Shown here: one piece after another, positions 25,384 through 59,779 of the stretch
Position numbering within the stretch: the first letter of the stretch is position 1
Layout of the letters: each line of letters starts with the position of its first letter
Origin: a bacterium
GTDB lineage: Bacteria; Armatimonadota; Zipacnadia; Zipacnadales; Zipacnadaceae
Reading direction: 5' to 3'
Assembly (NCBI GenBank): GCA_030615605.1
Contig: JAUWYY010000005.1
Coordinates: forward strand, 119,067 to 183,066
DNA: 64,000 nt
Translations under genes and position numbers: made by a program
Notes under the pieces: model-generated
Seen by the model: only the letters and a program-made list of their open reading frames with translations
The model's database searches: none
What the model was told of the DNA's origin: nothing

Positions 25384-25410
25384 CGTCAGGCGCGAGAGAA
25401 GCGTCAAATC

Positions 25411-38927: not shown

Positions 38928-40049
38928 ATGCACACCACTCGAGACAGCGTTGCGACGATCCTCCTCATGGTTGGAATAGTGACGGTGATCTTAATGAGCA
39001 GCGGATGCTCGCGGCAGGGGCGAATGTCGGCTGAGGGCGAGTCCAGGCGCGGCTTCCAGAGCAGGCTGCGGGTGGAGCTCAGGTGCGTTCCGCACGCAGA
39101 GATGAGCTTTACAAGCCCAGAGGACAAGCCGCTTGTGAGAGCCGGCGAGTCTGAGCAGGAACAGCAACAGACCCGGGAGTCCGCCAGATACCAGTCGCCT
39201 CACACTGGCGAAACACTCCAGGCCGCCACCCACGATGTTCTCCAAGGAATTGCCGCGGACCCGTCGAAGATTACCATCTCGGTAGTTGGTAACAACCGCC
39301 TGCTCGTAGAGACACAACCTGCGAACCCTCAAGAGGCTGAAAGGCAAAAGGATGCTGTTGCCACATACCTGCGCGAGACCTATCCTGGCATCGAGATACA
39401 AGCCGAACAGATGCGCGCCGTTTTCGTCGGGGATAACACCGCTGACGAGGTCGTATCCATCCTCAAGCGGCGGCTCCGTTCCTTGCGCGTTCGCAAGTCG
39501 GTAGTCCAGAAGCAGGGGCATGACCGCGTCATGGTCGAGCTACCTAGCCTCAAGGACCCGGAGCGTATGCTCAGTATTCTCGGGAGCACTGCCATGCTCG
39601 AGTTCCCCCTCGTGCCCACAAGGTACAGGCCAACCTCGCCCGAACCAAACACTAACGAAGAGTGGAAGGACGAACAGACCGGCGAAACTGTTGGCTGGGA
39701 GCAGGTGCGCGCCGAGTCCAGGGTCGCGTTCACCGGGTATGACCTCATGGAAAACGCCAAAGTTCAATCGGGCGAAGCCGGTGACTGGGTTGTGGCCTTC
39801 GAACTTAAGCCCGATAGAAAGGACAACTTCCGCGAGTTTACCCGTTGCAATGTGGGCCGCACACTGGCCATCGTCCTAGACCGTAGGTGCATCATGGCAC
39901 CCGTCATTCGCACTGCTATCCCGGGCCGAGGCATAATCGAAGGTAACATGACGGCCGAGGAAGCCCACGACCTCCAAATCCTGCTGAACGCAGGCGCTCT
40001 GCCCGTGCCGCTTGAGATTCTCGAAGAAGGCACTTATGGCCCTGCTTGA
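38928..40049 (+). CDS. lipoprotein with SecD-periplasmic-head-like domain
   Basis: Lipobox 'LMSSGC'. C-terminus 'TLAIVLDRRCIMAPVIRTAIPGRGIIEGNMTAEEAHDLQILLNAGALPVPLEI' resembles the SecD/SecF P1 head consensus. Confidence 0.5.
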   Translation: MHTTRDSVATILLMVGIVTVILMSSGCSRQGRMSAEGESRRGFQSRLRVELRCVPHAEMSFTSPEDKPLVRAGESEQEQQQTRESARYQSPHTGETLQAATHDVLQGIAADPSKITISVVGNNRLLVETQPANPQEAERQKDAVATYLRETYPGIEIQAEQMRAVFVGDNTADEVVSILKRRLRSLRVRKSVVQKQGHDRVMVELPSLKDPERMLSILGSTAMLEFPLVPTRYRPTSPEPNTNEEWKDEQTGETVGWEQVRAESRVAFTGYDLMENAKVQSGEAGDWVVAFELKPDRKDNFREFTRCNVGRTLAIVLDRRCIMAPVIRTAIPGRGIIEGNMTAEEAHDLQILLNAGALPVPLEILEEGTYGPA

Positions 40050-41346: not shown

Positions 41347-42735
41347 ATGCTTTGTCCAACATGTGGGCGAGCCAACGTTGATTATGCCGCATTCTGCGCG
41401 TATTGCCAGACACGCCTGCTCCCCGAGCAACTCCGGTTGACGGAATTCCCGGTCTGGGCACTACTACTTCTGCATTACTTCACGCTGGGTATCTTTTCGA
41501 TGGTGTGGATCAATCTGTACCACGGGAAACTGCCGCGACGACGCCCCAACGACCCAACTGCCGGCCGAGCGGTCGGATTCTTATTCATTCCCTTCTACGG
41601 CTTGTACTGGGTCTTCTTCACCCACCTGCGCCTCTGTGAACGTGTTGACCAGGAACGGACGCGTTGTGGCCTGCCCGAAGAGAAACTGAGGCCCTTCGCC
41701 ATCGCCACATGTATTGTCCAAGTTATTCCTTATGTCGGCTTGCTCAGTTTCTTCCTGCTATATCCGATCCTCGCTGGGGTTGTTCAGGCCAATATCAACG
41801 AAGTTGCAGCAGGCGGAACCTGGCGGTGCGCCACCTGTGGCGCAGACAACCCCGGCAGGAACACTTTCTGCGCATCCTGCGGGGCCCGGTTGCCGGAGGC
41901 TACGAGCGTCGTTATGCCCCCACCCGCAGACCAAGTTAGTCTCCAGTTTACCGGCACCGGGTTGCAATACCTCGGGTGGGGACTGCTCGCAGCGGTTGGC
42001 TCATACACCATCATCCCCGCTGGCTGGACAGCCACGGCAATGTGGCGCTGGTTTGTCACAAGCCTCCGCCTCAGCGACAGGCGCACAGCTACGTTCAGCG
42101 GCACAGGCAGCCAGGTATGGGGGTACTGCAGTGCCGCTGCGGTCCTCGGGATGACCACCTGGCTGGCCTATCTCTCCGACAACCCTGATACCGTTCTCCT
42201 CCTCACGTACGCCATGCTTGTGCCAGTGACTATGGGCCAGGTTGCCCTGGGGCTTGTTATCCTCCGCAGATGGTTAGCCCATACCCAGGTTTCTGGAGGC
42301 CAGCCGCTGCAATTCACGGGAAGTTACTGGCCTTTGCTGGGGTGGAACCTCTTATGCGCCGTATCTATCTACAGCATAGTTGGTTGGGCGTGGGCGGGGG
42401 CAGCCGCGCTACGGTGGTTCTGCAGCAATGTACGAACGGACCGCGCTGTTTTGCAGTTCCGTGGACGCGCGGCCACACTCCTGTGGCGTGGTGTGCTATG
42501 CTACTTGATGTGTATTCCCATCGTCACCGCTCCTTGGGCCGCAGTCTGGTTGTGGCGCTGGCTTGCCGAATCTACTGTTGTGCTTAGTCGCGCCGAAGCA
42601 GCATTTCCAGCGGGTGCCAGTGTCGCGCCTATCCCCAGTGGCGGTATTGTTTGCCCCAGGTGCGGCCAGCGTAATCCCGAAATTGCTGACTACTGTGCAC
42701 GCTGCGGAGCATCACTCCGCGCCCTGACGCAGTAA
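41347..42735 (+). CDS. polytopic membrane protein with three zinc-ribbon domains
   Basis: RBS 'GAAGGAGGCG'. Three 'C..CG.....FC..CG' ribbons (CPTCG..CAYCQ; CATCG..CASCG; CPRCG..CARCG) separated by clusters of TM helices. Confidence 0.65.
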   Translation: MLCPTCGRANVDYAAFCAYCQTRLLPEQLRLTEFPVWALLLLHYFTLGIFSMVWINLYHGKLPRRRPNDPTAGRAVGFLFIPFYGLYWVFFTHLRLCERVDQERTRCGLPEEKLRPFAIATCIVQVIPYVGLLSFFLLYPILAGVVQANINEVAAGGTWRCATCGADNPGRNTFCASCGARLPEATSVVMPPPADQVSLQFTGTGLQYLGWGLLAAVGSYTIIPAGWTATAMWRWFVTSLRLSDRRTATFSGTGSQVWGYCSAAAVLGMTTWLAYLSDNPDTVLLLTYAMLVPVTMGQVALGLVILRRWLAHTQVSGGQPLQFTGSYWPLLGWNLLCAVSIYSIVGWAWAGAAALRWFCSNVRTDRAVLQFRGRAATLLWRGVLCYLMCIPIVTAPWAAVWLWRWLAESTVVLSRAEAAFPAGASVAPIPSGGIVCPRCGQRNPEIADYCARCGASLRALTQ

Positions 42736-42803
42736 CGAGCAAAAAATGGCTTGCAGCATTCGGTGACTTTGTCACTGGGAGCAGCGGAACGGAGGCCGTG
42801 CAC

Positions 42804-43730
42804 ATGTTTTGCATAAAGTGCGGAAAAAGAAATCCTGAAGGAGTCCAGTTTTGTGCGTACTGCGGGCACAAAACCGTCGTGCCGGAGCAGCTGCTGCAGG
42901 CGCCAAGTGTTCCTGAGGTCACGGCTGCTGATGTCAAGACCTTCGCGCCGCCGGAGGCTGCCGTCCCACCAGGCGTGGCTCCACGTATCAGTGGCCTCGC
43001 TGTCGCCTCACTGATCCTGGGCATACTGGGAGTGACGGCGCTAGTGGGACTGATCCTGGGTATTGTCGGCTTGGTACAGATCAACGCAAGTCGGGGACGA
43101 CTTCGTGGGCAAGGCCTGGCAATTGCGGGGATCTCAGTCTCGGGCTTCATGGTTCTGATGGTGCTGCCGGCGATGCTATTTCCTGTCTTTGCCCAGGCGA
43201 GAGCCAAGGCTCGACAAACACAGTGCCTGAGCAACCTGAAACAAATCGCTGTTGCCACGATGATGTACGTGAGCGACTGGGATGGCCACTATCCGCCTAC
43301 ACGCAACTGGTGTGATACATTGAACCCCTACATAATGAACACTGAAATCTATCGCTGCCCCAGTCTACCCACTGAGCGGGGAGGGTACGCTTACAATACA
43401 CATATGAGCGGTATCCGGGAATACCAAATAGTAGCGCCCGCCCAAACGGTTATTCAATTCGACAGCACAGGCGGGTGGAACTTGGCCGGTGGCCCCGAAT
43501 TGGCAGACCTCCGGCATAACAATGGGCTAAATATGGGTTTTGCCGACGGTCACGTAAAATGGTGCCCAAGTGCGGTAGATGACTGGCTATCGTGGTCGCC
43601 GCGCGCAGGGGCTTCACTGGCCCCGCCGCCCGGGGGTCCGCCGGGCCCGCCCGTCTGGGAGGAGGAAGCGCCTCCGGCTGAGGAGGAGCCGGCCCCAGCG
43701 CCGTGGCCATCAGCACCACCACCAGGTTGA
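42804..43730 (+). CDS. zinc-ribbon / TM / H-X9-DG (DUF1559) pseudopilin-like domain protein
   Basis: 'CIKCG..CAYCG' ribbon. TM helix, then 'LFPVFAQARAKARQTQCLSNLKQIAVATMMY' and C-terminal 'HNNGLNMGFADGHVKW' (H-X9-DG). Pro-rich tail. Confidence 0.7.
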   Translation: MFCIKCGKRNPEGVQFCAYCGHKTVVPEQLLQAPSVPEVTAADVKTFAPPEAAVPPGVAPRISGLAVASLILGILGVTALVGLILGIVGLVQINASRGRLRGQGLAIAGISVSGFMVLMVLPAMLFPVFAQARAKARQTQCLSNLKQIAVATMMYVSDWDGHYPPTRNWCDTLNPYIMNTEIYRCPSLPTERGGYAYNTHMSGIREYQIVAPAQTVIQFDSTGGWNLAGGPELADLRHNNGLNMGFADGHVKWCPSAVDDWLSWSPRAGASLAPPPGGPPGPPVWEEEAPPAEEEPAPAPWPSAPPPG

Positions 43731-43916
43731 TGAGAGACCTACTTACCTAATCCTTTGCTGCTGCACGGGAGCCTGATGGCGGCGGCTGTATCGAACGCCA
43801 GGACAGACTGGCTAGTACCTGCAGAGCGAGTTCATAATGGGTGGTACAGACGAATTGACACAATCCAGTGGCACAGCGCTGGGGCAACCCAGTATTGAGA
43901 GGGGCGGAGCCCAGAT

Positions 43917-45711
43917 GGGGGAGACCGAACTCCTTCTGGGGCGACTGACGCTGCTGGCCACTGAAGAGGCGTTAGAATGGTTGGGGGGCCGCAATTGGAT
44001 ATCGGAAGAACTGGAGCAAGACGTACGAGGGTGGTGGTTTACGAAGCTGGGCCGGCGCTGGCAAATTGTCAGACGAATAGCGCAGCGTTTGGACAGTTTG
44101 GCACTCCCCCAAGTCAGCCTCACCGAGTATGAGTTGAGATCTCGCATGCTGCGGAGAGTATTGCCAGACGCGCACTGCCAGGTCTGTTACGGTACAGCTA
44201 ATCGCCAGTGTCAGGCATGTCGTGGCACGGGGCGCAGCCGGGACGACCTGTACCCGTGCGCCGAGTGTGCAGGCTGGGGCACTGAAACGTGTACCTGTGG
44301 GACCAAGCTCGACGTTAGGCTTCCCAGCAATGCATGCGATGGGATGATTGCCGCGGCGTGGTCGAGGCAGTCGAATCGGGTCTCGCTGGTGCGACTACAC
44401 TTTGCCCGTGAACGCAGTTCGAAGTTAGTAGTAGGGCGAATTAAGTTAGATGCCGCACATATGTGGCGAAAGATAGTCTGGTGGCTAGCACAAGCCGGAA
44501 TCGTAGTGCTTGTGCTAGTAGCCCTGCAGTCGTTGCTCAGGTGGACGCTGGAAGCTATGCGCTCAGGTTTGGAACCAGCGCAGGTCTTCAGGTTAATGAT
44601 GGTGATTGCGTTAACAGGCCTCGTGGGCTGGGCAGGTGCCTTAGTGCGAGCACCTGTCGTGCGGCATTGGGCGGGGGAAAGAACCGCACTTGGTGCCGAG
44701 AAAAGCTTTTGGCTTGCCCCTGTCTGGGAAAAGCTGGCCGCAGCCATGGCTACACGCTGGGGCCAGAAGGTAGCGGCGTTAGTATTGGTCATCACCCTAA
44801 TGTTCATTATTACTGCTACCTTGGGCCGACGGCAAGTGATATTTGTTGGTGGGCAGTTGGCATTGTGGATGTGCAACCACCAGATAGCCATAGACCGGTT
44901 TGGCGCATTGGTCCGGCCAGACAGTAGTGTGGGGACGGATCGCGCTCGTGCCGGACAGCTCGAGGCACAGTTTCGACGTGTGCAGGCCGTGGTCAAAGAT
45001 CACATACCCCTAGGCCAAAGTGACTGTAGCCCTGACACAGCGGCGGCAATACACCGTGACATCAGCTCGCTAGTCAAGCACCTGGACTGGTTGACGCCCG
45101 AGCGTAGGAGCGCATTGCCTGGTCTTGTGGCCTCGACGGCGGAAGTGGAAGTGGACTGGCACAAATGGGACCTGGCGCACGACCTTTTCGTGATTCTATT
45201 GCAAGAATTCCCCGCCCATTCCACATCACAGGCGCTGTCAATGCGTGCGGAGTGGCGCGTGGCGGCCATAGAACGCGTGAGCTTTCCGTTCTCTGTCTCT
45301 AGCATGGCCTTAGGAAGAGCGACCCAGAACTGGGACGGTTCGTGGGAGGCAGATTGCCAACGGCACAAAGCTGCCGCCAACCAGAAACTGATTGTCGTCG
45401 AAGCGAAGTTGGCACACGTAGGACGTACTCGAAAGGAAGTAGTGGCTGACCTTTTTAGGGTGCAAGATTCGGAAGACAATAGCTACGCGTGCCTCGGCTT
45501 TCAGGTTGATGAAACCGAGACACTGGAGTTCGTAGACGGCACGAAGGCTCCGGTGCGGCTACAGTACCTGTCATCAACGAGAGAGTTCCCGGGGATCTCG
45601 GTTGGGCCGGATAGCGTATGGGTGACAATGGTCTTTGAAGTGCCCCAGGAGGCAGGACGACTAGAGCTGATTGCCCGCGGTCAAGAACCAGTCTTGCTGT
45701 CCGACATGTGA
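43917..45711 (+). CDS. hypothetical protein with DnaJ-type CxxCxG zinc-finger cluster and TM segments
   Basis: 'CQVCYGTANRQCQACRGTGRSRDDLYPCAECAGWGTETCTCG'. Several hydrophobic helices. The ORF is open from 43837. Confidence 0.5.
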
Positions 45712-45723
45712 GGAGCAAGGCCT

Positions 45724-46191
45724 ATGCAGAGAGACGCGTTTAGAGTAGAGCTTTTTCCCTTTATGGCGGTGCTCATGTGTTTTCTGGGCGGCCTGCTGAC
45801 CATTGGCTTGACAGTAGTAGCACTGTCGGTACTGTTTCCCCAAGAAATCTGGAGCCTCGGCATGCCGGGCAAGGCCCATCGGCTACCTGCTGTGATCGAA
45901 TGGGACGGCTTTGGCGTAACGATCCATCCCCAGCGCGTGGTAATCCCCGCCGCGGTAGCTCTTGAGAAGGATGGCGATAACTCATCGGAGTTTGGCCAAC
46001 TGCTGCGCGAGGTCAGAGCGCACCCAGACAAGAGGTTCTTGTTTGTGCTCGTCCGGCCCACGGGCTTTTCCACATTTCCCCAATTGCTCCAGATGCTACA
46101 GCAAGATGAAGTTGATGTTGGGTACGAAGCTGCTGTACCGGAGCAAAAGATTAGCATAGTAATATCCGAGGGGGCGACAGGTGTTCCATGA
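45724..46191 (+). CDS. ExbD/TolR-like protein 1
   Basis: N-terminal TM 'LFPFMAVLMCFLGGLLTIGL'. Periplasmic 'KRFLFVLVRPTGFSTFPQLLQMLQQDEVDVGY' matches the ExbD C-terminal consensus. Confidence 0.5.
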   Translation: MQRDAFRVELFPFMAVLMCFLGGLLTIGLTVVALSVLFPQEIWSLGMPGKAHRLPAVIEWDGFGVTIHPQRVVIPAAVALEKDGDNSSEFGQLLREVRAHPDKRFLFVLVRPTGFSTFPQLLQMLQQDEVDVGYEAAVPEQKISIVISEGATGVP

Positions 46192-46895
46192 GGCGGCGTA
46201 GGCGAGTAGTAGAAGGCGTTGGTCTCAACTTAGATCCGTTGGCAGATATGCTGGCCAACAGCATTGGGATATTGCTAATCGTCATAATTTACGCAGTCCT
46301 GGCAGCGAGGGGAACATTCATTTCCCGCAGTTTGCCTTTTCAAGTGACAACCACGAAAGAGTCCGTCAGTTTTCTCGTATTGCCCACCGGGATCCACTAT
46401 GCACCCCTTGAGGCAATGCTCGATGATTTTTTCGTGGGCCTGCCCGGCTACTCCACGGCCCGACGACAACTATCACTGACCTATCATAACATACCTCGAT
46501 TTGTGGATGCTGTGAACAAGAAGCGGTTGAAGCGGCATGGCTTGGAAATATGTGCCGAGGCGGACTACGACGAAACTTCTGACTGGCCTTACATGAGGCG
46601 CGAGGTTACTCGGCTCATTCTGCACATAGATCTCAAGACGAGGGATGAAGTAGTTGGACTGACGGAACTGGCCGATGCGCTGCCCAGTCTCGATAAGAAC
46701 CGGCAGTGGATTCTGTTCTATGTAGCCCCGGATGCAATACCTATGTATCAGCTCGCCAAGGACTTAACGCTGCAAGCTGGCCTACAAATCAACTGGATGC
46801 CTTGGACCGAGCTGTGGCCTGTCCCGGTTTCTCTTGTACCCCCGCCCTCTCCTGGACAGGCGTTGATTACGGGCCCACAGGTTACAGGCGGATGA
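46188..46895 (+). CDS. ExbD/TolR-like protein 2
   Basis: 'LNLDPLADMLANSIGILLIVI' matches the ExbD N-terminal 'inltPliDVmlvLLIFF' pattern. 4-nt overlap with the upstream gene. Confidence 0.45.
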   Translation: MRRRRRVVEGVGLNLDPLADMLANSIGILLIVIIYAVLAARGTFISRSLPFQVTTTKESVSFLVLPTGIHYAPLEAMLDDFFVGLPGYSTARRQLSLTYHNIPRFVDAVNKKRLKRHGLEICAEADYDETSDWPYMRREVTRLILHIDLKTRDEVVGLTELADALPSLDKNRQWILFYVAPDAIPMYQLAKDLTLQAGLQINWMPWTELWPVPVSLVPPPSPGQALITGPQVTGG

Positions 46896-47020
46896 GGATT
46901 GCACCTGATGCAACTATGCTGTTCGGTGCTTTCCCACGCAGTCTCGAAGCGGTGGTGTAGCGCAGCGAACTGGTCTGTATCGCAATTAGAACAGAACGCA
47001 GAGAACACAAGGAGGCGACG

Positions 47021-48322
47021 ATGATGGCGAGGGTATGTGCCGAGTGTGGTGCTGGAGTTACATTGCCAAATGCCGAATTCTGTGCCCGGTGTGGCAAGCC
47101 TTTACCTGAGGAGCCCACACAAGACCCTTCCGCCTCTACGATTTCTGATAAGGCGCAACCGGAAACGCGATGCGCGGCGGAAAAGCCCTTAACCGTACCG
47201 TCTGGCCACGCTGAGGAGCAGATTGCTGCCCCGCCAGTGCCTGCGGTTCCGGTCAATCCGTGTCCATATTGCGGCTTCATGGTAGAGGTGCCTTGGCCTG
47301 AACGCTGCCCCAACTGTGATCGCCTCCTGGAGACACGCCCGTTGGACAGCCTGCCCCGCGTGCCCTGGTCGCTTCGGATTACCGACCGTATGGCATTTGG
47401 GCTCAGCGTGCTGCTAAGTGCGGTGCTTGTGGGAACATTGCTTCGGACGGTGGACGACATTGTCGCCAGAGAGAGTTTAATCCGCCAGATTCTGTTGCCG
47501 GAGGGGATGCTGCGTCTCATCCCGGAGGCAATAACAGTGCTTTTTGTGTGGTCCATACTCCAGGTATTGTGGCGATCAATTATGCTGATCACCCAGCATC
47601 GCTACCCCAGTGGACAGGTTCGCCAAGACTGGCTCCAGACGCTACGGTCGGGAAGGCTGCCTGGTGACCCCGAGGTGATCAGGCAACTGGGGGGAGAACA
47701 GGCCCAGCGGAGCTGGTGGGTCAGCCGGCTGCGAAGATCCCTAACGCATTGGCTCCGCACACGAGACCCCAGCCAAGTCAACGCAGTCCTGGAGCAACAT
47801 GCAGTTCTCGACAGCGAGGCGGTACGCTCGAACTACTCGCTCGTGCGGCTGGCGATCTGGGCGATGCCGATTCTCGGCTTCATCGGTACCGTTATCGGTA
47901 TCACCTTGGCGATCCAAGATTTCTCCCAGTTCCTGGGCGGTGAGGTGGACGACATAGATCGAGTTCGCACCCAGTTGATGCAGGTCACCGAGGGCTTGTC
48001 ATACGCATTCCTGACCACTATGTACGGGCTTGTCACCGCCTTGATTGCAATGTTTGTAACGTCATTCGCGGAGAAGGGGGAGCAGGACTTGTTGGTGGCG
48101 GCGGATCGGTACGCTCTCGACCAACTGGTGCCCGCTCTACAATCGGGGAGCGCGCCAGCAACACAGCGGGGGATAACTGATGTCAAGCAGCGCCCTGAGA
48201 CGGGGCCGGAACAGTTGTCAGAGCAGGTTGATGTGTTGAGCGACCAAGTGGGGGACCCCAAAAAAGAGTTGGAAAGACCACCACGGCGGGGAAAAAAGAA
48301 GCGATCCCAAAAGCCGGAGTAG
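47021..48322 (+). CDS. zinc-ribbon / MotA-TolQ-ExbB-family proton-channel fusion protein
   Basis: RBS 'AAGGAGGCGACG-ATG'. 'CAECG..CARCG' and 'CPYCG..CPNC' ribbons. C-terminus 'MPILGFIGTVIGITLAIQDF...GLSYAFLTTMYGLVTALIAMFV' is the MotA/TolQ/ExbB signature. Confidence 0.7.
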   Translation: MMARVCAECGAGVTLPNAEFCARCGKPLPEEPTQDPSASTISDKAQPETRCAAEKPLTVPSGHAEEQIAAPPVPAVPVNPCPYCGFMVEVPWPERCPNCDRLLETRPLDSLPRVPWSLRITDRMAFGLSVLLSAVLVGTLLRTVDDIVARESLIRQILLPEGMLRLIPEAITVLFVWSILQVLWRSIMLITQHRYPSGQVRQDWLQTLRSGRLPGDPEVIRQLGGEQAQRSWWVSRLRRSLTHWLRTRDPSQVNAVLEQHAVLDSEAVRSNYSLVRLAIWAMPILGFIGTVIGITLAIQDFSQFLGGEVDDIDRVRTQLMQVTEGLSYAFLTTMYGLVTALIAMFVTSFAEKGEQDLLVAADRYALDQLVPALQSGSAPATQRGITDVKQRPETGPEQLSEQVDVLSDQVGDPKKELERPPRRGKKKRSQKPE

Positions 48323-48444
48323 TTTTGGGCTAACGGAATCAGCGGTGAGGAAGCCGCGGATTTGTCGCTTGACGAGTCTTAGTCGCTAGTTTAGAATGGG
48401 GTGTAAGGAACCTTAGTCGCTAGTTTAGCAGGAAGTGTGGGAAA

Positions 48445-49848
48445 ATGAGAACAAGCGAACATGTAACAAGGCCTAGGCCCAAGATAGCCATTGTTATTCT
48501 GGTGGTGGCTGTTGTGTTGTTGGCTGTCTGGTTTGCTATGCGGCTTGTTTCGCTGCGCGCTGAGTCGGCTCCCGGAATAAGCGGGTATGTTGAGCGGGCG
48601 ATTCTCGCTGAAGACTGGACAAAAGTCACAGATCTGCTAGGAACCGTCGATGGAGGAACGGTGTCCTGCGTACCCCGCTTGGTCAAGGCACATGCGTGTC
48701 TCGCCCTGAATCGAAATAATGAGTCGCTCTGTCTTTTCCTGAGCGTCTCGTCGCAAGACGAGCTGAGCGAGTGGAAAAGGTGGACCCAGAACTTTGCAGG
48801 AAGAAACCCGAAAAAGGCTATCGCCCAGTACTTCCGGGGGGATGGCCTGGCACGCCTAAAGCAATGGGACTCTGCCCTGGCGGCGTTCAACCAGGCATTG
48901 GACCCTAATTCGGCCCATGCGCTGGCCTTAAACAGCCGGGGTATTGTGTATGCCGCCAGAGAGCAGTGGAACGAGGCCCTGCTTGATTTCGTTGCTGCAG
49001 CGGAGGCCCAACCTTCCTTTGCTGACGCATACGCGAGCCGGGGTACCCTGAGTATTCAACGGCAGGAAGGCCCCACGGGGGCAGTGCGTGCCTTCAGTCG
49101 GGCCCTCGAGATCGAGCCAGACTTTGCCCTCGCGCGTGTTGGCCGCGCCGCAGTGGAGATGGTCCTGGGTAAGTGGGACGAGGCCGAAAAGGATCTCAAA
49201 CGGGCGCAGGAGTTGTGCAAAGCCGGCCTCGAAACTCTGCATAGGGCGACGTTACTCAACGCAGCCGCCCTCGCTGAGGCTAGATCAGAAGCGGCGAGAA
49301 GAGTACTCCTCGTGGCGACGCACGCGGACCCTGGCATGGGCCTTGACACTCTGATCGGCCGTTTCGACAACCTGTCTTCCAGGGAGCAGCAGGTAGTTGC
49401 TGGAGCAGTGCTGGACGCTGCCGCGCACAACGGAGCCGTGATGGACCTACTACCGGATGCAATCAGCTTGAATGTTGGCCCTATGGTCGGCGTCGGCCCC
49501 AGTGGCCCCATGGTAGGGATGGGGGTCGGTGGCAGCGTTGAGTTCAACCCGCGCGAGCGGACGCAGAACAATCTCGATTGGCAGCAGCCCCTCCTCGACC
49601 ATGCACTGCGCAAAGGCGTAGAGCCCGCGGACATGACCGGCTTGGGCGCGTGGGGGCGCTCACGTCCGGGGCATATAGCCCACGAATTCACCCACCCGCA
49701 GCCAGGCGGAGTGTCTTCCGAGGAGTTCGCCTATGCACCCCTTGACACCGGTGAGTGGAATGCTTACTCGCTTTACGGCCTTGCCTATAACTTCAGAGAA
49801 GGAAACGCTCAGGCAGCGCAACAGCCCAAGCTGGAGGAGGCGGAGTGA
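48445..49848 (+). CDS. TPR-repeat protein with N-terminal TM anchor
   Basis: N-terminal TM helix, then TPR units ('AIAQYFRGDGLARLKQWDSALAAFNQALDPNSAHA', 'LNSRGIVYAAREQWNEALLDFVAAAEAQPSFADAY'). Confidence 0.7.
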   Translation: MRTSEHVTRPRPKIAIVILVVAVVLLAVWFAMRLVSLRAESAPGISGYVERAILAEDWTKVTDLLGTVDGGTVSCVPRLVKAHACLALNRNNESLCLFLSVSSQDELSEWKRWTQNFAGRNPKKAIAQYFRGDGLARLKQWDSALAAFNQALDPNSAHALALNSRGIVYAAREQWNEALLDFVAAAEAQPSFADAYASRGTLSIQRQEGPTGAVRAFSRALEIEPDFALARVGRAAVEMVLGKWDEAEKDLKRAQELCKAGLETLHRATLLNAAALAEARSEAARRVLLVATHADPGMGLDTLIGRFDNLSSREQQVVAGAVLDAAAHNGAVMDLLPDAISLNVGPMVGVGPSGPMVGMGVGGSVEFNPRERTQNNLDWQQPLLDHALRKGVEPADMTGLGAWGRSRPGHIAHEFTHPQPGGVSSEEFAYAPLDTGEWNAYSLYGLAYNFREGNAQAAQQPKLEEAE

Positions 49849-52800
49849 TGATGGGTGCGCGGGTCCGCTGGATTATTCTCGTGTCGCTCGCAATGCTTGT
49901 TGCAGGGGCTGGCCCCAGCCAGGCCGGTCCATTCGTGGCGTACTCTTTGAGAGAAGCCGAACAACACGCTAAATCCGCTCAGCCCGGCCCCAAGGCCAGG
50001 CTCATGGCAGGTATGACCCGTATCGTCGGTGGGGTGTATGACAGGGCCAACAGCGACCTGATAGTCGTGGGCCAGGGTAATCCAGGGGAGCAAAAGATAA
50101 CTCTCGACCATCTAGTCGTGGCTCTTCGTTCCCTTCTGGTGCACCACGAATGGCCCTTGGTGAGCATTGACAATAGCCCCCAAACTCGTCGTACGCACAA
50201 GCAAATCGTTCGCTTCAACGGAGGTATAGAGAATACAGCCTTCGGTAAAGACCTTCTCGAGGCTGATATCATACTGAAGAAGCTGGGGCTCGGCTTGCTT
50301 CCCACTGAACCCGTTGGCATCCGCAGCTATTTCGATCTACGAGTTGACCAAGCCAAGGAAAACGCCGTTGTAGGCAGCATGGCCAGTCGCTTCTGGTTCT
50401 ACCCTATGGACCCGGTTCTGGCGGTGCGCGAGGATGTGTTTGCGATTCAAGAGGTGCGCGTTGGAGTGCGCACTGAGGTACTTGGCGCGCGCTTTGAGGG
50501 CAAGTCCATAGCGGACTTGGCCAAAGTCCACGACAAGATGGGCGACTGTTTCGCTGCGTCTCTGACGGAAAACTACAATCTTGTGAGTGCCGGGTATCCA
50601 GAAATCAATCGCCTCCGGGTGCTCCTCGATCTGGCAGCGCTGAGCTGGGGTGTCAACCGTTTACCGGCGAAGCCCGATTTGAGGTACTGGCTGCGTGACT
50701 ACGACGTCAGGTATGTAGAGACTCCCGCCGACTATCCGGTCCTGAAACGCGAGTCGAAAATCAGCGGGGGAAGGGGCACTTACGTGCTGCAAATGTCTGG
50801 GGGTGTAGAATTGAAGGCGTTGGTGTTGAGGCTGGAGGACGGCGATGTGACAGCCCTCAAAGAAGCGGTTCTGAAATCGCGGCCCGGCCCCCACGCCCTG
50901 GCCTGGCGAGTTCCCCTCGAAGGCTGGCACATTCCCGGTTCGCCAAAGGCGGGCAGGGAAGCCGCAGAGAATTCCATTATCAACGATCCAATGCTGCCGC
51001 ATCAGAACATGGGGTGTTCCATCATGAGCGGTCTGAGGCGTGCTGATGTACCTGCACTCAACGATCATTTCACTGCTGCCGCCATGCCTGGAATAGGCAA
51101 GTCGTTGCCGACGCGTCTTCCAGAGTTTTCCACGCGCACAACGTTGCTACCCTCAACCTCCAGCCCGGTAACCTCCGGTCCACGTTTGACCTTCGAGCCG
51201 GTTCCTGGCGGAGGGCTGGAGCCACGCTTGCTACCAGCCGGTATTGAGCCTGACTCTCTCACACCTCCCTCAGCACCGTTCAAGGCTGCTGACGTCGGCG
51301 GGATCCTACTGCGCGCCGATCCCAAGGCCGAGCTCAGCGAAATCCGTGGCGCGGTGTGGGACGACAAGGGCCATCAGCTAAGCCTGGTGCTATCCTCGGG
51401 TACCAGCAGTGTCCCGATCGAACTGGTAGACGATTGGCGTGCCATACTGCTGTCGGTCTACGGCGGCGAGGACCCGGGTATCTCCATTGACCCCGGCCCA
51501 ACGCGCAACGTGATGCTGGTGCGCACCATTGGCAGGGTCCGGGGCACTCGCCTGGCCAAGGTTATGCTGGAAGCTGACCGGCTCCTGAAGAACTATTCGC
51601 TGGGCCGCGATAACCGCACCGGGGAGCCGATGAACCCTGACATCCCTGGCTACAATCCACTCGTAGACATTATCTGGGAGACCGGACTGCGCTACAATGG
51701 GGCTCTTACGCGCACATGGTTCGTGCCGCGCCCGGTCCCCATCAGCGAGGCGAGAGGGCGGTTATGCTTTGGGGAAGTGCAGATTGAGGCGCGCACCGAG
51801 TACGACATGGAGGGGCTGCGTGGGGAGCGCGAGCCCGCTGCCAAGCGCTATGCGCAGTTTTTCACCGACAACTACGAGCAGTTTGCAGAGCTCCATGCAG
51901 AGCTTGGGCAGCTCAAGGAATACGCTAAGTTAGTCGCTTTGGCCAAGTATCTACGCCAGGAGGCCGTGCCCCTGAACTGGTTGATTTTTGCCCTACCCTG
52001 CCGCCAGCAACCGATAGAGTGTCCGCCTACCGAGATGGGCTATACGATAGGCGCGGAGGAGACAGGTGGCTTACAAATCTGGGGCGGAGTGCAACTAGGA
52101 ACAGGCGTGGAGACGCAATACGATCTTTCCGCCATGCCTGCTGCCACCCTTGATCTACTGGCTCTGGAAGCCTACGCGGCGGCTCAGCTGAGGCAGATCG
52201 ACGGCGTCATCGAACCTGGGCAGCTGCCCGCCCTCCAGGCTGAGCTGGAGAACCAGCCTCAGACTGTGCTTAGTTTTCCCGCTCGCGTGCGTACCACGAC
52301 GGGACGTTGTGTGGACATATACAACGACGCCGTCGTGCGAGACCAACACGGGCCAATTCTGCAGCTCACTCGCGTTCAGGGCACGTACGGAGGCGAGGAG
52401 TTCGGGCGTGGCTGGAGCTTGTTCGTGCCGTATAGCTTGAGGCCGTCAACTCGTACAACGACCGTCGGTCAACACTCAGTCCCGCGCCGCATAACTATAG
52501 AAGACCAGCTCAGCGGGTGCTCATTTGTTCTCGAAGTTACCCGGGACAAGGACGGTACCATAAGCTACCGCTCAGATGATTGCTGGTGGATACGGGGGGT
52601 TTATCCACGGACAGGGACAGATGGCGGGTGGGTAATGGAAGACTACTGGGGCGACATATTCAGCTTTGACAAGCACCTGCATCTGGTACTAGTCGACCTT
52701 GGACGAGATAACCGCTGGGCATACGAGTGGAGCGATGAAGGCAGAATCGTGAGTATCTGCGCACTACCGTATTCGATCACTCTGGGACCGCCTGAGCACG

Positions 52801-53387
52801 ATACCCCGCTCGGACTGGTCCCTCATAACATTGCTGTTGAAGACCGGGCGGGGCGTCACATTCTGTCGTACGAAGCTGTCAAGGGAACCGCAGTCAGCTA
52901 CAGCGCAACTCAGGGGCCATGGCGGGTCTTTGTCATGACTGAGGGACAGCCTCTGCGTCTCATAGACGCCGCCGGGCGCACACTGGTCTACGACGCTAGC
53001 GGCGTTCTCCTGTGCGTTGAGCGCCAGCCCGTCCCTGCCCCAGGCGCCATGGGCTATTGGGCAATAGACCTCAAGTATGGCAATCAGGGTTACGTTGTGG
53101 CTGCAGAGTTGGCCGGGGCCGGGGACGTCTACTATGCCTACAACGACAAAGGCGAGCTCCAGGTGGCTGTAGATCCACGCGGCTGGCCGGTATACTCCTC
53201 ACCAACTCCAGCGCCGCAAGCCGGTCCACATGTTGCCTGGCCGCTCGCGGTTGCCTTGGTCGTGGTCGTGATGGGTATCACGTGGTATCGTCGGCATCGG
53301 GGCGCTGGAATCACAGGCGCTCGAAAACCAGCGATGCACGCCGGCAGAGATGCCGAGCCAGACAAAGGTTCCCCTGGGGCCCGATGA
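49845..53387 (+). CDS. large (1180 aa) secreted/cell-surface protein with C-terminal TM anchor
   Basis: Signal peptide 'WIILVSLAMLVAGAGPSQA'. C-terminal 'WPLAVALVVVVMGITWYRRHRG'. 4-nt overlap with the TPR gene. Confidence 0.65.
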   Translation: MMMGARVRWIILVSLAMLVAGAGPSQAGPFVAYSLREAEQHAKSAQPGPKARLMAGMTRIVGGVYDRANSDLIVVGQGNPGEQKITLDHLVVALRSLLVHHEWPLVSIDNSPQTRRTHKQIVRFNGGIENTAFGKDLLEADIILKKLGLGLLPTEPVGIRSYFDLRVDQAKENAVVGSMASRFWFYPMDPVLAVREDVFAIQEVRVGVRTEVLGARFEGKSIADLAKVHDKMGDCFAASLTENYNLVSAGYPEINRLRVLLDLAALSWGVNRLPAKPDLRYWLRDYDVRYVETPADYPVLKRESKISGGRGTYVLQMSGGVELKALVLRLEDGDVTALKEAVLKSRPGPHALAWRVPLEGWHIPGSPKAGREAAENSIINDPMLPHQNMGCSIMSGLRRADVPALNDHFTAAAMPGIGKSLPTRLPEFSTRTTLLPSTSSPVTSGPRLTFEPVPGGGLEPRLLPAGIEPDSLTPPSAPFKAADVGGILLRADPKAELSEIRGAVWDDKGHQLSLVLSSGTSSVPIELVDDWRAILLSVYGGEDPGISIDPGPTRNVMLVRTIGRVRGTRLAKVMLEADRLLKNYSLGRDNRTGEPMNPDIPGYNPLVDIIWETGLRYNGALTRTWFVPRPVPISEARGRLCFGEVQIEARTEYDMEGLRGEREPAAKRYAQFFTDNYEQFAELHAELGQLKEYAKLVALAKYLRQEAVPLNWLIFALPCRQQPIECPPTEMGYTIGAEETGGLQIWGGVQLGTGVETQYDLSAMPAATLDLLALEAYAAAQLRQIDGVIEPGQLPALQAELENQPQTVLSFPARVRTTTGRCVDIYNDAVVRDQHGPILQLTRVQGTYGGEEFGRGWSLFVPYSLRPSTRTTTVGQHSVPRRITIEDQLSGCSFVLEVTRDKDGTISYRSDDCWWIRGVYPRTGTDGGWVMEDYWGDIFSFDKHLHLVLVDLGRDNRWAYEWSDEGRIVSICALPYSITLGPPEHDTPLGLVPHNIAVEDRAGRHILSYEAVKGTAVSYSATQGPWRVFVMTEGQPLRLIDAAGRTLVYDASGVLLCVERQPVPAPGAMGYWAIDLKYGNQGYVVAAELAGAGDVYYAYNDKGELQVAVDPRGWPVYSSPTPAPQAGPHVAWPLAVALVVVVMGITWYRRHRGAGITGARKPAMHAGRDAEPDKGSPGAR

Positions 53388-53479
53388 ATGCAGTCTTGGG
53401 CTCCAGGCTCCGCTACGCCGCACCTGGCGCCCCGGGCATAGGCAGCCCCGGGCAGGACGGCCTCCGGCGCCTGTGGTCG

Positions 53480-53782
53480 GTAGCCGAGTGAACTGTGTGG
53501 TCGCACCGTATTATAGTGCCTTCGCCAGCGTTCGATGAGCACCTGCGCCTCTTTGAGTGTGTAGAAAATCTCCCCATCGAGCAACTCGTCCCGCAGCTTG
53601 CCATTGAACGATTCAATGTAACCATTTTGCCACGGGCTGCCCGGTTCAATATACAGCGTTCTCACGTTCAGTTGGCGCAACCATTCGCGCACATTCTTCG
53701 CCGTGAACTCCGAACCGTTATCGGACCGCAGGTAGTACGGCGCACCGCGCTGAGTGAACAGCTGCGTCAGCCGATCCAGCAC
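53480..53782 (-). pseudogene. IS3-family transposase OrfB C-terminal (DDE) fragment
   Basis: 'YYLRSDNGSEFTAKNVREWL...IEPGSPWQNGYIESFNGKLRDE...YNTVRPHSSLGY' is the IS3 integrase-core third-Glu region. No upstream part. The ORF runs on artefactually to 53138. Confidence 0.7.
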
Positions 53783-53953: not shown

Positions 53954-54499
53954 TCACGAGTTAGCTTCGGCAGCCGCTATCCAAGAGCCGATGATTGCGC
54001 CGATCACCAGTCCAGCGAAGGTCAGCTCAACTAGGGGCCAGTCAATGACCTGGAAGTAGCAAAGTGCCAGCCCTATCAGGCCGCCTATAGCCCCGGAAAC
54101 GTAAACTGCAAAGACTGGGGGTGGTGTGAAAACTGGTGCGCGATATGAGGGAATCCCGAGGGGATACCGGTCGAAGCTGGGGTAGTCCGGCAAGTGACTG
54201 CGTGTGCGATACGGCTCTTCAAACAGTTCTTCTCTTACCTGATCCGAGGTGGGGTTCACGAGCCTTGCAAGCTCGTTCAGCGGGGGCAAGGATTCGATCC
54301 AGTCACGAACGTCTGCAGCAGCAAACCACTGTTGGGGGGCCTGCGACCACGAGATCCTCTTTAACAGCGTGATGTAGGCGGAGTACAGCTTGGGCTCGGA
54401 AACATCCGCAAGCGCGTTCTCCACGGCGCCTCGGCCGAGGTGAGGCGCAATCTTGACCACTTGATCAACGACCATTGCCAAGATGTTGCCGCTTAGCAT
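53954..54499 (-). CDS. hypothetical protein with C-terminal TM helices
   Basis: Last gene of the minus-strand Cdc48-Hsp70 array. Hydrophobic C-terminus. Confidence 0.45.
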   Translation of the reverse strand: MLSGNILAMVVDQVVKIAPHLGRGAVENALADVSEPKLYSAYITLLKRISWSQAPQQWFAAADVRDWIESLPPLNELARLVNPTSDQVREELFEEPYRTRSHLPDYPSFDRYPLGIPSYRAPVFTPPPVFAVYVSGAIGGLIGLALCYFQVIDWPLVELTFAGLVIGAIIGSWIAAAEANS

Positions 54500-54566
54500 G
54501 CTTCTCAGCTCCCATGCTCGCCTGATAAGCCCTCACTCTGCCCATTCTCGCCTCTTTGCCAGTGTC

Positions 54567-56621
54567 TTAGGTATGGCGCCAAGATCCCAGGTAGACATAA
54601 CCGGTCATTACCCCCCAAGCGATGGCAAATGCCGGTAGCCAGGCAGTTGGTGAAGCGATCCAAGCGATGGCCCCGATAGCTGCTGGTATCTCGGTGGCCC
54701 CAACCAAGAACTGTAGAATGTGGAATGGGTGTATGTCCATGGATTCGACCATCGCCGCTGCCAGACTGGGTGTAGCGGCCTTGATGACAAAGACTATTGA
54801 CACAGCCCATAAGAGTAGCGTGTAGATATCTTCGGTGCTTCCCTTTGACATCCTCATCTCGCAGCATGCGTAGGCCAGAGGGACAGTAATCAGTGCTGCG
54901 AGGGCTACATTGCCCACGATTGTGGAGAAAAATGCCACCGTGGCACGTTCCTCCTCATCATCTGTCCGTAGCATTCGAATGAATAGTTCGTACCAAAGCC
55001 GTCCGATAGCCAGAGCGATTATCATCATCCCTCCCGGCGCGAAAACTTCGTGCCAATCGATGTCGTAGTAAAGCAGGAGTAGTCCTGCGCCGAAAACTAC
55101 AGCCACTATTGATTGGGCGGCCGCGCCAATATGCGCGATTGCCGCCGCGATGTTCACGGGCTGTGACTGAGCGGCTGCGATAAGTGTTACGAGCCTGGTG
55201 AAACCCCAATGGACAGCCAGCAAGATTAACGCTCCGTATCCGCCGATCCATACGACACTAGCGATGGTCAAGCGCTCCGGTTCGAGGCCATAGTCATAGT
55301 AGGCGAGAGCTGCCATCACCAAGGTCCCGAGCGCCGCGTGGCCAAACAGAGTCGCTAAGAAACCCAAGAACGCTTCACTGTGATCAACATGCTCGGTCTG
55401 TGTTGCAGGTTGCTCTGCGGCGTCACCGTTTCCGTTTGCCGAGCGAGCCTTGTACATGGCACTGAGACATGTACGCCACAGCACGGCAAGCCCGGCCACG
55501 ATACTGACGAAGAGCACGTCTAGAGGGAAGGGCAACGCTCCCTCAGACGCGGGCTCCCTGTCAAACCATACGAGGAGGGATAACCCCAGAACCGCGCACA
55601 GGAGGGCTCCGGTAGTTTCGCGCCGGTCTGGAAAAAGCATGATGACTGCGCCCGCCGGCACCAGCGGGTTGAAGAGTCGACTGATGATACCCAAGATGTA
55701 GGGCGAGACCACCAGCAGGAACCAGGCAAGGCCACCGCTGACCAGTAAGAGGTCCCAGCCCTGAAACCCGAAGGTCGCCGCCAGCGTCAGGACAAGCGAG
55801 TAAACTAGAGTTGTGCTGCCGGCCCACCTGGCAAAAGCAGCCGATCTCTCAGTGCTGGGAAAAGCAAAAAGAGTCCCGAACCAGTAGCGCAATAAGAATG
55901 GCAGCGGTACAAGCATGACCAGCCACTGCACTTCCACACCGACCTTGTCAAGTGCATTTGCTGCCAGTTCAATGGGCACGGCGAGGGCAAAGCAGCCAAT
56001 AGTCCCCTGTATCGTGGTCAGTAGAGCAGTGCCGATAGTAGGCCGGCGGAAAGAAGCGCGCACAAATCGACACTGACCGGCTATGGTCTCTTGGCTTTTT
56101 AGCAGCCACTGAGATCGGCAGCCTGATGGTATGAGGAACTCAACGTTGCGTCTTCCCACGCTGAGCGCTACGGTTCTGCTTGTGATTATTTCCCATCCGG
56201 GGAAGTCCATGTCCTGAACTCCCGCCACGGAACTCTGGCACCAGTTCAGGACGCGACGTCTCAATTCGGCTGGTTGAATGTCACGTTGTGCAGAGGCCTC
56301 GTCTTCGATGTGTCGCCATACATCTGCGCGGGGCAACAGGTCAAATATGAACGGTCCCCAGCGGGCCCGGACGTCTCGCAACAGCCGGTCCCGCACGCGG
56401 ACACAAGCCAGGTGCATTTGACGGTGTTGAAGGAGTTGATCGCGCGCGTGCACGACCTTTGGCTGTAGGTCAGGATAATCGGCAATCAGGTCAAGCGTCG
56501 CATCAATGATGCGGGGACCTTCCGCGCCAGGAGATACTCCCAAGGCTTGCAGGTAGTAGCCCTGGTCCAGGAGCGCGTTGACATCCTCCATTGTATTTGT
56601 CATCATTCTGTCATGAGCCAA
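54567..56621 (-). CDS. large polytopic membrane protein (684 aa) with N-terminal soluble domain
   Basis: About 200-aa hydrophilic N-terminus followed by more than 12 predicted TM helices. Starts 24 nt after the Hsp70 stop. Confidence 0.55.
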   Translation of the reverse strand: MAHDRMMTNTMEDVNALLDQGYYLQALGVSPGAEGPRIIDATLDLIADYPDLQPKVVHARDQLLQHRQMHLACVRVRDRLLRDVRARWGPFIFDLLPRADVWRHIEDEASAQRDIQPAELRRRVLNWCQSSVAGVQDMDFPGWEIITSRTVALSVGRRNVEFLIPSGCRSQWLLKSQETIAGQCRFVRASFRRPTIGTALLTTIQGTIGCFALAVPIELAANALDKVGVEVQWLVMLVPLPFLLRYWFGTLFAFPSTERSAAFARWAGSTTLVYSLVLTLAATFGFQGWDLLLVSGGLAWFLLVVSPYILGIISRLFNPLVPAGAVIMLFPDRRETTGALLCAVLGLSLLVWFDREPASEGALPFPLDVLFVSIVAGLAVLWRTCLSAMYKARSANGNGDAAEQPATQTEHVDHSEAFLGFLATLFGHAALGTLVMAALAYYDYGLEPERLTIASVVWIGGYGALILLAVHWGFTRLVTLIAAAQSQPVNIAAAIAHIGAAAQSIVAVVFGAGLLLLYYDIDWHEVFAPGGMMIIALAIGRLWYELFIRMLRTDDEEERATVAFFSTIVGNVALAALITVPLAYACCEMRMSKGSTEDIYTLLLWAVSIVFVIKAATPSLAAAMVESMDIHPFHILQFLVGATEIPAAIGAIAWIASPTAWLPAFAIAWGVMTGYVYLGSWRHT

Positions 56622-56645
56622 GATGCCTATACTACGTTCAACTGT

Positions 56646-58835: not shown

Positions 58836-58904
58836 CTTAGGTGTCGATGAGCACTCTGGAAACCGGTGAAAAGTGCTTAACTTCAGTTCTAGCAGCGGCA
58901 GGTA

Positions 58905-59744
58905 TCACTGGCTATCGGCCTCGTCGCCATCGATATCATCCAGGATTCGCCCCAAACGAAACAGAATTCCGCGCATGTTGCTTTTATTTGCCTCTGCCTT
59001 TTCGTAAAGACCTATCAGGTCCCGGCCATTCTGCCTCAAAGTTGCTAGAGTCTTGAGCATTTGAGTCCGTTCAAGGAATCCGCGATCAAGGGCCTCGCGC
59101 CAGGCATTGTAGGCATCTTCGAGCCCACCGGCGTTGCGATATAGGACCTGCCACACATCAGGAAGATCGTCGGCCCGGGCTCCTCTGCCGTTCTGTCTTG
59201 CAATAGCATAGGTCATCGCCGCCCCCGCGACCAGGCAACTAAAACACGCCAGCACAAACCAGCCGACAGAAATGCCCTTTTGAATTGAGCCAGGTGCAGC
59301 AGAGGGACTGACTTGAGGAACGGTGCGCCGAACCGAAGCAGCGTCTATCACTCTCGCAGATGCCACACCAGTGCGGTATAATCTCAAGTTACCCGGTGTC
59401 TCAACCTTCAGACCCCACTCATATTCGCCGGCCGGCACAGACACGTCCACACGCTTGCTCCACACGCCGTCTGCTGCTGTCTGGTCGCCGCCGCGCCCGC
59501 TGTCATTGAGCGCGAATTGACACACCCGCGTGCCCCGCCTGAATAGGACGGCAGTGACATGTGTGCCTGGTCGCTCAACGACGGCCTGTCCGTCTGCCGT
59601 GACACGTACGCGAATGTTCAAGTCTGCAGGCCCGACTGTCCCCACGGCGCTTTCAAATGTTGCCGCAAGGTCGTTTGAAGCAGCAGCAAACCCCTGCAAG
59701 AATGCAAGGACAGCAAAACACAAGAAGACCGCAATCCTCTTCAT
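58905..59744 (-). CDS. hypothetical single-pass membrane protein with signal peptide
   Basis: Signal peptide 'IAVFLCFAVLAFLQGFAAA'. Central TM 'VGWFVLACFSCLVAGAAMTYAI'. Sits between the Cdc48-like and Hsp70 genes. Confidence 0.5.
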   Translation of the reverse strand: MKRIAVFLCFAVLAFLQGFAAASNDLAATFESAVGTVGPADLNIRVRVTADGQAVVERPGTHVTAVLFRRGTRVCQFALNDSGRGGDQTAADGVWSKRVDVSVPAGEYEWGLKVETPGNLRLYRTGVASARVIDAASVRRTVPQVSPSAAPGSIQKGISVGWFVLACFSCLVAGAAMTYAIARQNGRGARADDLPDVWQVLYRNAGGLEDAYNAWREALDRGFLERTQMLKTLATLRQNGRDLIGLYEKAEANKSNMRGILFRLGRILDDIDGDEADSQ

Positions 59745-59779
59745 CGTATGGCCTGCCTTCTCAGCATCCTGAGTATTGT

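Follow-up and report, generated by a model that had tools for sequence, protein, structure and literature searches.

Between positions 41347 and 53387 of a 64,000-nucleotide (nt) window from an Armatimonadota genome (positions 119,067 to 183,066 of contig JAUWYY010000005.1, GenBank assembly GCA_030615605.1; "the window" denotes this whole stretch), eight plus-strand open reading frames (ORFs), here g1 to g8, follow one another at the positions given in a preliminary description of this DNA, and our comparative analyses revealed that the last five of them, g4 to g8, are conserved together across many phyla. These five genes encode two paralogous single-pass membrane proteins (g4 and g5), a MotA/TolQ/ExbB-family channel (g6), a membrane-anchored tetratricopeptide repeat (TPR) protein (g7) and a 1180-aa protein with tandem DUF1598-type domains and a YD-repeat-like region (g8). 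On balance, we think it somewhat probable that the g4-g8 core is an undescribed machine of the 5:2 motor kind, which is driven by the proton motive force and acts on g7 and g8.

At least 575 relatives of the channel were found in a scan of one genome per species, and 80 loci were kept, which derive from Planctomycetota, Verrucomicrobiota, SAR324, Myxococcota and other delta-proteobacterial lineages, Gemmatimonadota, Bacteroidota and others. Iterative searches from g4 and from g5 converged on 149 ORFs, which are present in 83 of 87 loci and always adjoin the channel gene, and the two partner types, termed D1 (g4) and D2 (g5), are always paired. The triad is usually ordered channel-D1-D2; the inverse, partner-before-channel order that the preliminary description had emphasised is true of the window, while it represents a minority permutation in the family. 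A metagenome scan from g8 gave 79 loci, 37 of which extend 6 kb or more beyond g8 on its upstream side, and among these 37 the channel and partner genes were present in 32 and a g7-type TPR gene in 34. One locus (L088) carries D1, D2, channel, TPR and g8 genes, with a g8 protein 34% identical to that of the window, another from candidate division LCP-89 (L089) carries the channel, two partners, TPR and g8, and the five-gene form with the DUF1598/YD protein was found in sediment, freshwater and soil metagenomes. A neighbourhood comparison of the collected loci revealed no other gene family conserved around the module; the conserved unit consists of g4-g8 only and the eight genes as a whole are not one unit, as had been proposed.

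In the close relatives of the window locus the gene order is g8, a zinc ribbon-RDD membrane gene, g3, D1, D2 and channel; because these relatives keep g8 near g3-D1-D2-channel, g8 is linked to the module even after rearrangement. Homologs of g3 with 34-42% identity lie directly upstream of the g4 homolog in five loci (L001, L092-L094 and L105), and g3, combined with a zinc-ribbon membrane protein of one kind or another, is an addition specific to this clade. When the zinc ribbon-RDD gene of the close relatives was compared with g2, the ribbon alone matched, and no co-located homologs of g1 or g2 were found in the related loci examined. The co-conservation suggested earlier as a check on the array is thus tight for the channel, its partners, the TPR protein and the giant protein, but does not extend to g1 and g2, which are neighbours of the module.

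Beside the triad in some loci, including the flanks of L006 and L007, genes with FHA, PP2C, Ser/Thr kinase, ThiF/YukD and JAB domains were observed, which hints at phosphorylation control or a link to conflict systems. In one genome, that of Kolteria novifilia Pan216, a VgrG-like gene (L086, 6050-8818; Phage_GPD, Phage_base_V and Gp5 C-terminal domains) lies on the opposite strand about 600 bp upstream of channel-D1-D2.

The assignment of g6 to the MotA/ExbB family was borne out by a PF01618 match with E=5.8e-14 (52.4 bits, gathering cut-off 22.9) over residues 241-349 (nt 47741-48067). Its four hydrophobic segments lead us to predict a MotA-like topology with N-in and C-in termini, and about 85 residues follow the last transmembrane (TM) segment. 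Two motifs, P283-I-L-G...G289-T290-V291 (PILGFIGTV) and A329-F330...T333, are invariant among 29 channel-family members. Thr and Gly residues of the last two TM helices in PF01618 channels line the pore around the partner Asp, and T290 and T333 of g6 are, as we presume from the motif, the equivalents of ExbB T148 and T181. All NCBIfam equivalogs remained below their cut-offs on g6 (ZorA_2 19.9 of 100 bits, TolQ 17.2 of 221, ExbB2 16.5 of 135, MotA 11.7 of 340), and these scores, together with the absence of any TonB, TolA or MotB-type protein, agree with the earlier view that this locus differs from standard Ton, Tol and flagellar stator loci. In a PDB sequence search with the channel-family profile, the only good solved match was ZorA 8vvn (E=3e-12), from a Zorya structure (PMC11890865), and no ExbB, TolQ or MotA chain was retrieved at E<=0.01. 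PADLOC ZorA models match g6 as well (best E=4.4e-8), and long C-terminal cytoplasmic coiled coils occur in most channel-family members. The nearest relatives are Armatimonadota metagenome-assembled genomes. We predict that g6 assembles into a pentameric stator.

Ahead of its channel core, g6 carries two zinc ribbons of the CxxC...CxxC type (aa 6-24 and 81-99; nt 47030-47104 and 47261-47317). Channel zinc ribbons are present in 56 of 82 members of the wider family, but in only 4 of 41 g8-containing operons, so they are an accessory and not a defining feature. Within the subclade of the window, cytoplasmic zinc modules are found on g6, on g3 and on RDD, DUF4190 or DUF4234 proteins, a distribution over several membrane components that, as far as sequence can tell, would fit a role as regulatory handles. 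One channel homolog (L137, 1542-3413) begins with an FHA-like sequence instead of a zinc ribbon.

Neither g4 nor g5 matches any Pfam or NCBIfam family, while an hhalign comparison of the g5 family with the g4 family (probability 98.9%, E=3e-17) identifies the two by profile similarity as paralogs. A word-indexed homolog search with g5 recovered two proteins, and an exhaustive representative search was used instead, which yielded 252 cluster representatives at E<=1e-3. The TM residue D20 of g5 (nt 46245-46247) lies within the motif LNLDPLADML, the D2-type family shows the motif SLDSLLDIVTN with the Asp, and in 68 sequences from an independent exhaustive search this TM Asp is invariant. The D1-type motif is SLFPFLSVL, with Ser at the key position in 66 of 73 sequences, Asn in four, Asp in two and Ala in one; g4 itself has Ala where g5 has the TM Asp and the family consensus is Ser. 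An essential TM Asp is known from ExbD (D25) and TolR (D23), and in a targeted hhalign comparison D20 of g5 was aligned to D25 of ExbD, which is a weak, motif-level match (P=1.8e-4, probability 48.6%). With its basic N-terminus, single TM helix and periplasmic alpha/beta domain, g5 (AF2 model, pLDDT 91) has a topology compatible with ExbD, and the order of its secondary-structure elements would be compatible with that of ExbD/TolR if residues ~85-157, which are absent from g4, are taken as an insertion. No peptidoglycan-binding domain was detected in g4 or g5 by Pfam or in a scan of the family. Matches to TssO in 6 of 135 partner proteins were set aside as coiled-coil noise. Judged from their sequences, g4 and g5 are ExbD-like in role and motif without being members of PF02472, and we regard them as functional B-subunit analogues that are possibly related to ExbD very remotely. 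We predict that g4 is the Asp-less half, and g5 the proton-binding half, of a heterodimeric axle.

The g7 protein, with a TM segment at aa 14-32 and matches to Pfam TPR families, belongs to a specific family and is not a generic TPR protein, given that its non-TPR N- and C-terminal parts alone retrieved orthologs in 57 and 54 loci, respectively, beside g8 homologs. Its layout resembles that of TolA and TonB in that an N-terminal TM helix leads into an extended region of repeats and a Gly/Pro-rich stretch, and the protein ends in a C-terminal domain. We regard g7 as a candidate adaptor or force transducer.

In g8, two tandem DUF1598-type domains of ~300 aa (~nt 49923-50939 and 51330-52154) precede a YD/RHS-like beta region (~nt 52230-53168). 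The tandem domains are duplicates of each other (hhalign 99.8%), and the AF2 model (pLDDT 71) contains two well-predicted alpha/beta domains, a disordered linker and ~300 aa of beta hairpins. The match of g8 to PF07643 (DUF1598) reaches 17.1 bits with a cut-off of 25, while many of its 83 homologs of ~1100-1200 aa carry a precomputed PF07643 hit; no solved counterpart of these domains was found by Foldseek or PDB sequence search. When the g8 model was compared with BFVD, one viral match was significant, to a segment of a Tupanvirus 'J domain-containing protein' (E=3.4e-7, 601 aligned columns), and according to this model comparison the DUF1598-type tandem domain may be present in a giant virus. 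The beta region scores 16.1 bits with TIGR01643 (cut-off 15.8, E=0.012), and Foldseek returned local matches to RhsA-type effectors and teneurins within their YD regions (E ~5e-6, TM-score <0.1). Proteins with RHS/YD repeats form a closed beta shell that encapsulates a C-terminal toxin. A full shell of this kind is unlikely for g8, because its repeats span only ~300 residues and a toxin domain was not detected in it.

A C-terminal TM anchor is predicted for g8 at aa 1130-1148 (nt 53232-53288), and a corresponding anchor was seen in 1 of 61 homologs, most homologs carrying a signal peptide only. We considered whether the anchor could be an artefact of the insertion sequence (IS) remnant that abuts the 3' end of g8; this was ruled out, as the close relatives L092, L093 and L105 share the anchor and lack that IS, and the anchor is native to the subclade. 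We predict a periplasmic location for g8, and the surface location that had been put forward earlier is unsupported, with most homologs having no membrane anchor.

The codons of g7 and g8 overlap at the stop/start junction by 4 nt (GTGATGATG), with GGAGGAGG ahead of the overlap, and those of g4 and g5 overlap by 4 nt as ATGA, so that translational coupling is visible at both junctions; for g7 and g8, this coupling, the TPR repeats and the TM segments had all been described correctly. Moreover, TPR fusions to domain 1 of g8 exist in some organisms (proteins P0095-P0116), and one of them, P0109 from a Nitrospira, is 40% identical across g8 residues 27-365. Because of these domain fusions and the translational coupling, a g7-g8 complex is likely. 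TPR-domain 1 fusions were also observed to stand alone, with no nearby MotA-like gene, and in Nitrospira sp. Ecomares 2.1 (L090, 10001-12265) such fusions lie amid integrases, transposases and a PemK toxin.

Taken together, we propose that five copies of g6 surround one g4:g5 heterodimer, whose TM helices would sit in the channel with the protonatable Asp on g5 only. A heterodimeric axle has a predicted precedent in AglR5-AglQ-AglS (PMC11761067), and tolR-like genes have been reported in heterologous pairs (PMC12204202, see below). Proton flow through the channel would move this axle, whose periplasmic alpha/beta domains, one each from g4 and g5, would pass the work to g7, and via g7 it would reach g8, with its two DUF1598-type domains and YD-repeat beta region. 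As the likely output, g8 would be remodelled or positioned mechanically at the cell wall or outer membrane, comparable to what Tol-Pal or Agl-Glt do; this output does not look like TonB-type import. The extras of this lineage, namely the zinc ribbons of g6, g3 and the membrane anchor of g8, are probably regulatory or assembly add-ons.

Several observations weigh against such a motor. The preliminary description had called g4 and g5 ExbD/TolR-like, and although they are a dedicated single-pass pair with a fitting motif that adjoins the channel, the profile and Foldseek thresholds were missed: none of 135 family members matched Pfam ExbD (PF02472) at E<=0.01, a PDB search with the partner-family profile reached ExbD no better than E=1.2, jackhmmer searches from E. 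coli ExbD and TolR baits did not recruit the g4/g5 family, and Foldseek with the g5 model gave no significant match, with TolR at rank 17 (E=1.3). The TM helix of g7, inspected by eye, has no His, and a TonB-like SHLS docking motif is absent from it. Both g7 and g8 are unlike TonB, TolA, TolB, Pal and Glt proteins in Pfam, NCBIfam, Foldseek and PDB searches, the periplasmic location of g8 is itself a prediction, and ZorA, to which the channel family is closest among solved proteins, is a defence protein. What the sequences show is the family membership of g6, the paralogy of g4 and g5 with the invariant Asp, the co-conservation of the five genes and the g7-g8 fusions; complex formation, stoichiometry and proton coupling of g4-g8, like the contact between g7 and g8 and the output, are what we infer.

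Among the alternatives, we consider it unlikely that the genes specify a gliding or adhesion machinery analogous to Agl-Glt, in which g8 would serve as an adhesin, or carry one, and be moved by the motor with respect to the cell envelope. In Myxococcus xanthus, AglR5-AglQ-AglS is predicted to consist of a TolQ-like pentamer around a heterodimer of different TolR-like proteins (PMC11761067). The window encodes the same combination of one TolQ-like and two different TolR-like subunits, TPR proteins are associated with both systems and are integral to Glt, FHA genes or fusions stand beside some family members in a way reminiscent of GltG, and the YD repeats of g8 are of a type found in surface and adhesion proteins. 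However, no homologs of Glt, Cgl or Nfs proteins are present, a GltE match (E=0.0057) reflecting generic TPR similarity, and neither an outer-membrane barrel nor any other outer-membrane component is conserved around the module, which has a DUF1598/YD protein and a dedicated TPR family as its output proteins. The signal peptide-only architecture of most g8 homologs does not speak for adhesion either, and nothing points to surface exposure.

It is also quite unlikely, in our opinion, that the module is a Zorya-like anti-phage or envelope-sensing system that signals inward via the cytoplasmic parts of g6, i.e., the zinc ribbons in the window and the coiled-coil tails elsewhere. Among solved proteins, ZorA matches the channel family best and the PADLOC ZorA models match g6, most family members have the long C-terminal coiled coils, the phyletic spread is patchy, mobile-element traces occur both beside g8 (the IS remnant) and around L090, and the neighbours in other loci include CHAT-TPR, ThiF/JAB, FHA, PP2C and kinase genes. 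Nevertheless, the ZorA matches cover only the shared channel core and the coiled coil with low bit scores, all curated ZorA scores remaining below their cut-offs (NCBIfam ZorA 19.9 versus 100 bits), PADLOC matched none of g1-g5, g7 and g8, and no cytoplasmic effector of the ZorC/D/E type is conserved, the conserved partners being periplasmic. In contrast to ZorB, the partners are not MotB-like, with no peptidoglycan-binding domain detected in g4 or g5, and the tail of g6 is short (~85 residues).

A Ton-like energiser of outer-membrane import is, to our mind, very unlikely. The resemblance to Ton and Tol-Pal comprises the PF01618 channel as well as single-pass partners whose N-terminus is basic and whose TM Asp lies in an xNLxPLxD-type motif, and a loose parallel may be drawn between g7, the candidate TM-anchored periplasmic adaptor, or g8, the large periplasmic protein, and TolA, TolB and CpoB. 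In Vibrio TonB2 clusters, the TPR protein TtpD accompanies exbB/exbD, which could likewise be invoked for import. The partners in the window, however, are two diverged paralogs, only one of which has the Asp and neither of which matches PF02472, and g6 has four TM segments and a cytoplasmic N-terminus with zinc ribbons. Pfam and NCBIfam detected no TonB_C or TolA domain in g1-g8, the cluster has no TolB or Pal and its order is partner-partner-channel, the neighbourhoods of the module hold no conserved TonB-dependent receptor, and the NCBIfam ExbB and TolQ scores lie far under their cut-offs. A chance neighbourhood, in which eight same-strand genes would not make up one system, seems hardly credible. 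The lack of co-conservation of g1 and g2 and the 62-125 nt gaps between several genes speak for it, and it may apply to g1 and g2; for g4-g8 it is refuted by the five-gene co-conservation across phyla from two independent starting genes, the fusions and the stop/start overlaps.

Our literature searches retrieved no paper mentioning DUF1598 and none describing the g4-g8 module. The nearest published observation is a cluster of TPR, tolQ-like, two heterologous tolR-like and vWA genes in bacteria of the Planctomycetota-Verrucomicrobiota-Chlamydiota (PVC) group (PMC12204202); its authors emphasise that more systems with a 5:2 motor await discovery. The terminal gene of the cluster described here encodes a DUF1598/YD giant, whereas that of the PVC cluster encodes a vWA protein tethered by a TM helix, and Foldseek gave no vWA match for g8. 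The possibility that PVC members of the channel family belong to these published clusters was rejected for both inspected loci (L086 and L016), where they stand alone among housekeeping genes.

The features of the cluster are listed in Table 1. The gap between g3 and g4 is 12 nt and contains GGAG, and scans of the cluster for promoters and terminators gave no signal above chance level. Pfam, NCBIfam and hydropathy analyses recovered the zinc ribbons described earlier for g1, g2 and g6, the polytopic nature of g1 and the H-X9-DG domain of g2. In g1, CxxC pairs are located at aa 3/17, 161/175 and 436/450 among several hydrophobic segments, with Pfam matches to Zn_Ribbon_1 in three stretches, DZR and DUF4234, and the C-terminal domain of g2 matches TIGR04294 with 23.1 bits (cut-off 19). 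The Cys cluster of g3, which had been missed, comprises CxxC motifs at aa 114, 125 and 141 and weakly matches the DnaJ zinc-finger region; TM segments follow at 213-231, 252-270 and 312-330, and no Pfam family or PDB sequence match was found for this protein.

Table 1. Features of the cluster and its downstream boundary (positions in the window)
Feature	Position	Strand	Description	Basis
g1	41347-42735	+	polytopic membrane protein; three zinc ribbons, at N-terminus, middle and C-terminus; DUF4234 region	Pfam, hydropathy
g2	42798-43730	+	zinc ribbon, DUF4190 TM region and DUF1559/H-X9-DG pseudopilin-like domain	Pfam, NCBIfam
g3	43837-45711	+	624-aa membrane protein; DnaJ-type Cys cluster in N-terminal part, then three hydrophobic segments and ~290-aa C-terminal domain	
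g4 (D1 type)	45724-46191	+	155-aa single-pass protein, paralog of g5	
g5 (D2 type)	46188-46895	+	235-aa single-pass protein with TM Asp D20 and periplasmic alpha/beta domain	
g6	47021-48322	+	MotA/TolQ/ExbB-family channel with two N-terminal zinc ribbons, four TM segments and MotA_ExbB core	
g7	48445-49848	+	N-terminally TM-anchored TPR protein with Gly/Pro-rich stretch and C-terminal non-TPR domain	
g8	49845-53387	+	1180-aa predicted periplasmic protein with signal-like N-terminus and C-terminal TM anchor	
IS remnant	53400-53782	-	truncated IS-type integrase (rve_3) adjoining the 3' end of g8	

A decayed mobile element lies at the edge of the cluster. The rve_3 match (E=9e-30) covers residues 39-103 of a minus-strand ORF at 53138-53782, of which the N-terminal half of the integrase is missing and the rest is antisense to the 3' end of g8; the remnant is the downstream boundary of the cluster and lies outside the system. 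Just beyond it, at 53954-61885 on the minus strand, a run of genes encodes proteins of 181 aa and 684 aa, an Hsp70-like protein of 729 aa, in which the HSP70 profile is matched by the N-terminal half only, a 279-aa protein and a Cdc48-like double-AAA ATPase of 701 aa. PADLOC gave generic AAA+ similarity (IetA, TRIP13) for these genes and one weak PDC-M61B match for the Hsp70-like protein, and the run may be a separate Hsp70/AAA system. Upstream of the cluster, at 38928-40049 (+), a 373-aa protein consists of SecDF P1 head and SecD_1st domains alone, apparently without the SecD/F membrane domains, and further upstream, at 23531-27546 (+), four consecutive ORFs of similar size (269, 348, 363 and 347 aa) overlap or abut at their ends.

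To the best of our knowledge, 5:2 motors are the only bacterial route by which inner-membrane energy is delivered to periplasm, outer membrane or cytoplasm. Their characterised outputs are flagellar rotation, Ton import, Tol-Pal, gliding, type 9 secretion and Zorya, each of which was a significant discovery. We rate g4-g8 as a probable 5:2-motor operon, widely distributed and uncharacterised, with novel axle and output proteins. We further suggest, tentatively and with distinct reserve, that it could represent a new class of 5:2 machine, which would be distinguished by an obligate heterodimeric axle with a single Asp, B-subunits of no known family and a TPR plus DUF1598/YD output, would serve a function unlike import, outer-membrane stabilisation, flagellar rotation, gliding, type 9 secretion or Zorya defence, and would have spread horizontally across at least 10 mostly uncultured phyla. 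Should the module turn out to be merely a Tol-like variant, the gain would be modest and consist of an annotation for several families of hypothetical proteins. If true, a heterodimeric axle with a single Asp would bear on the number of protonation sites that a 5:2 motor needs.

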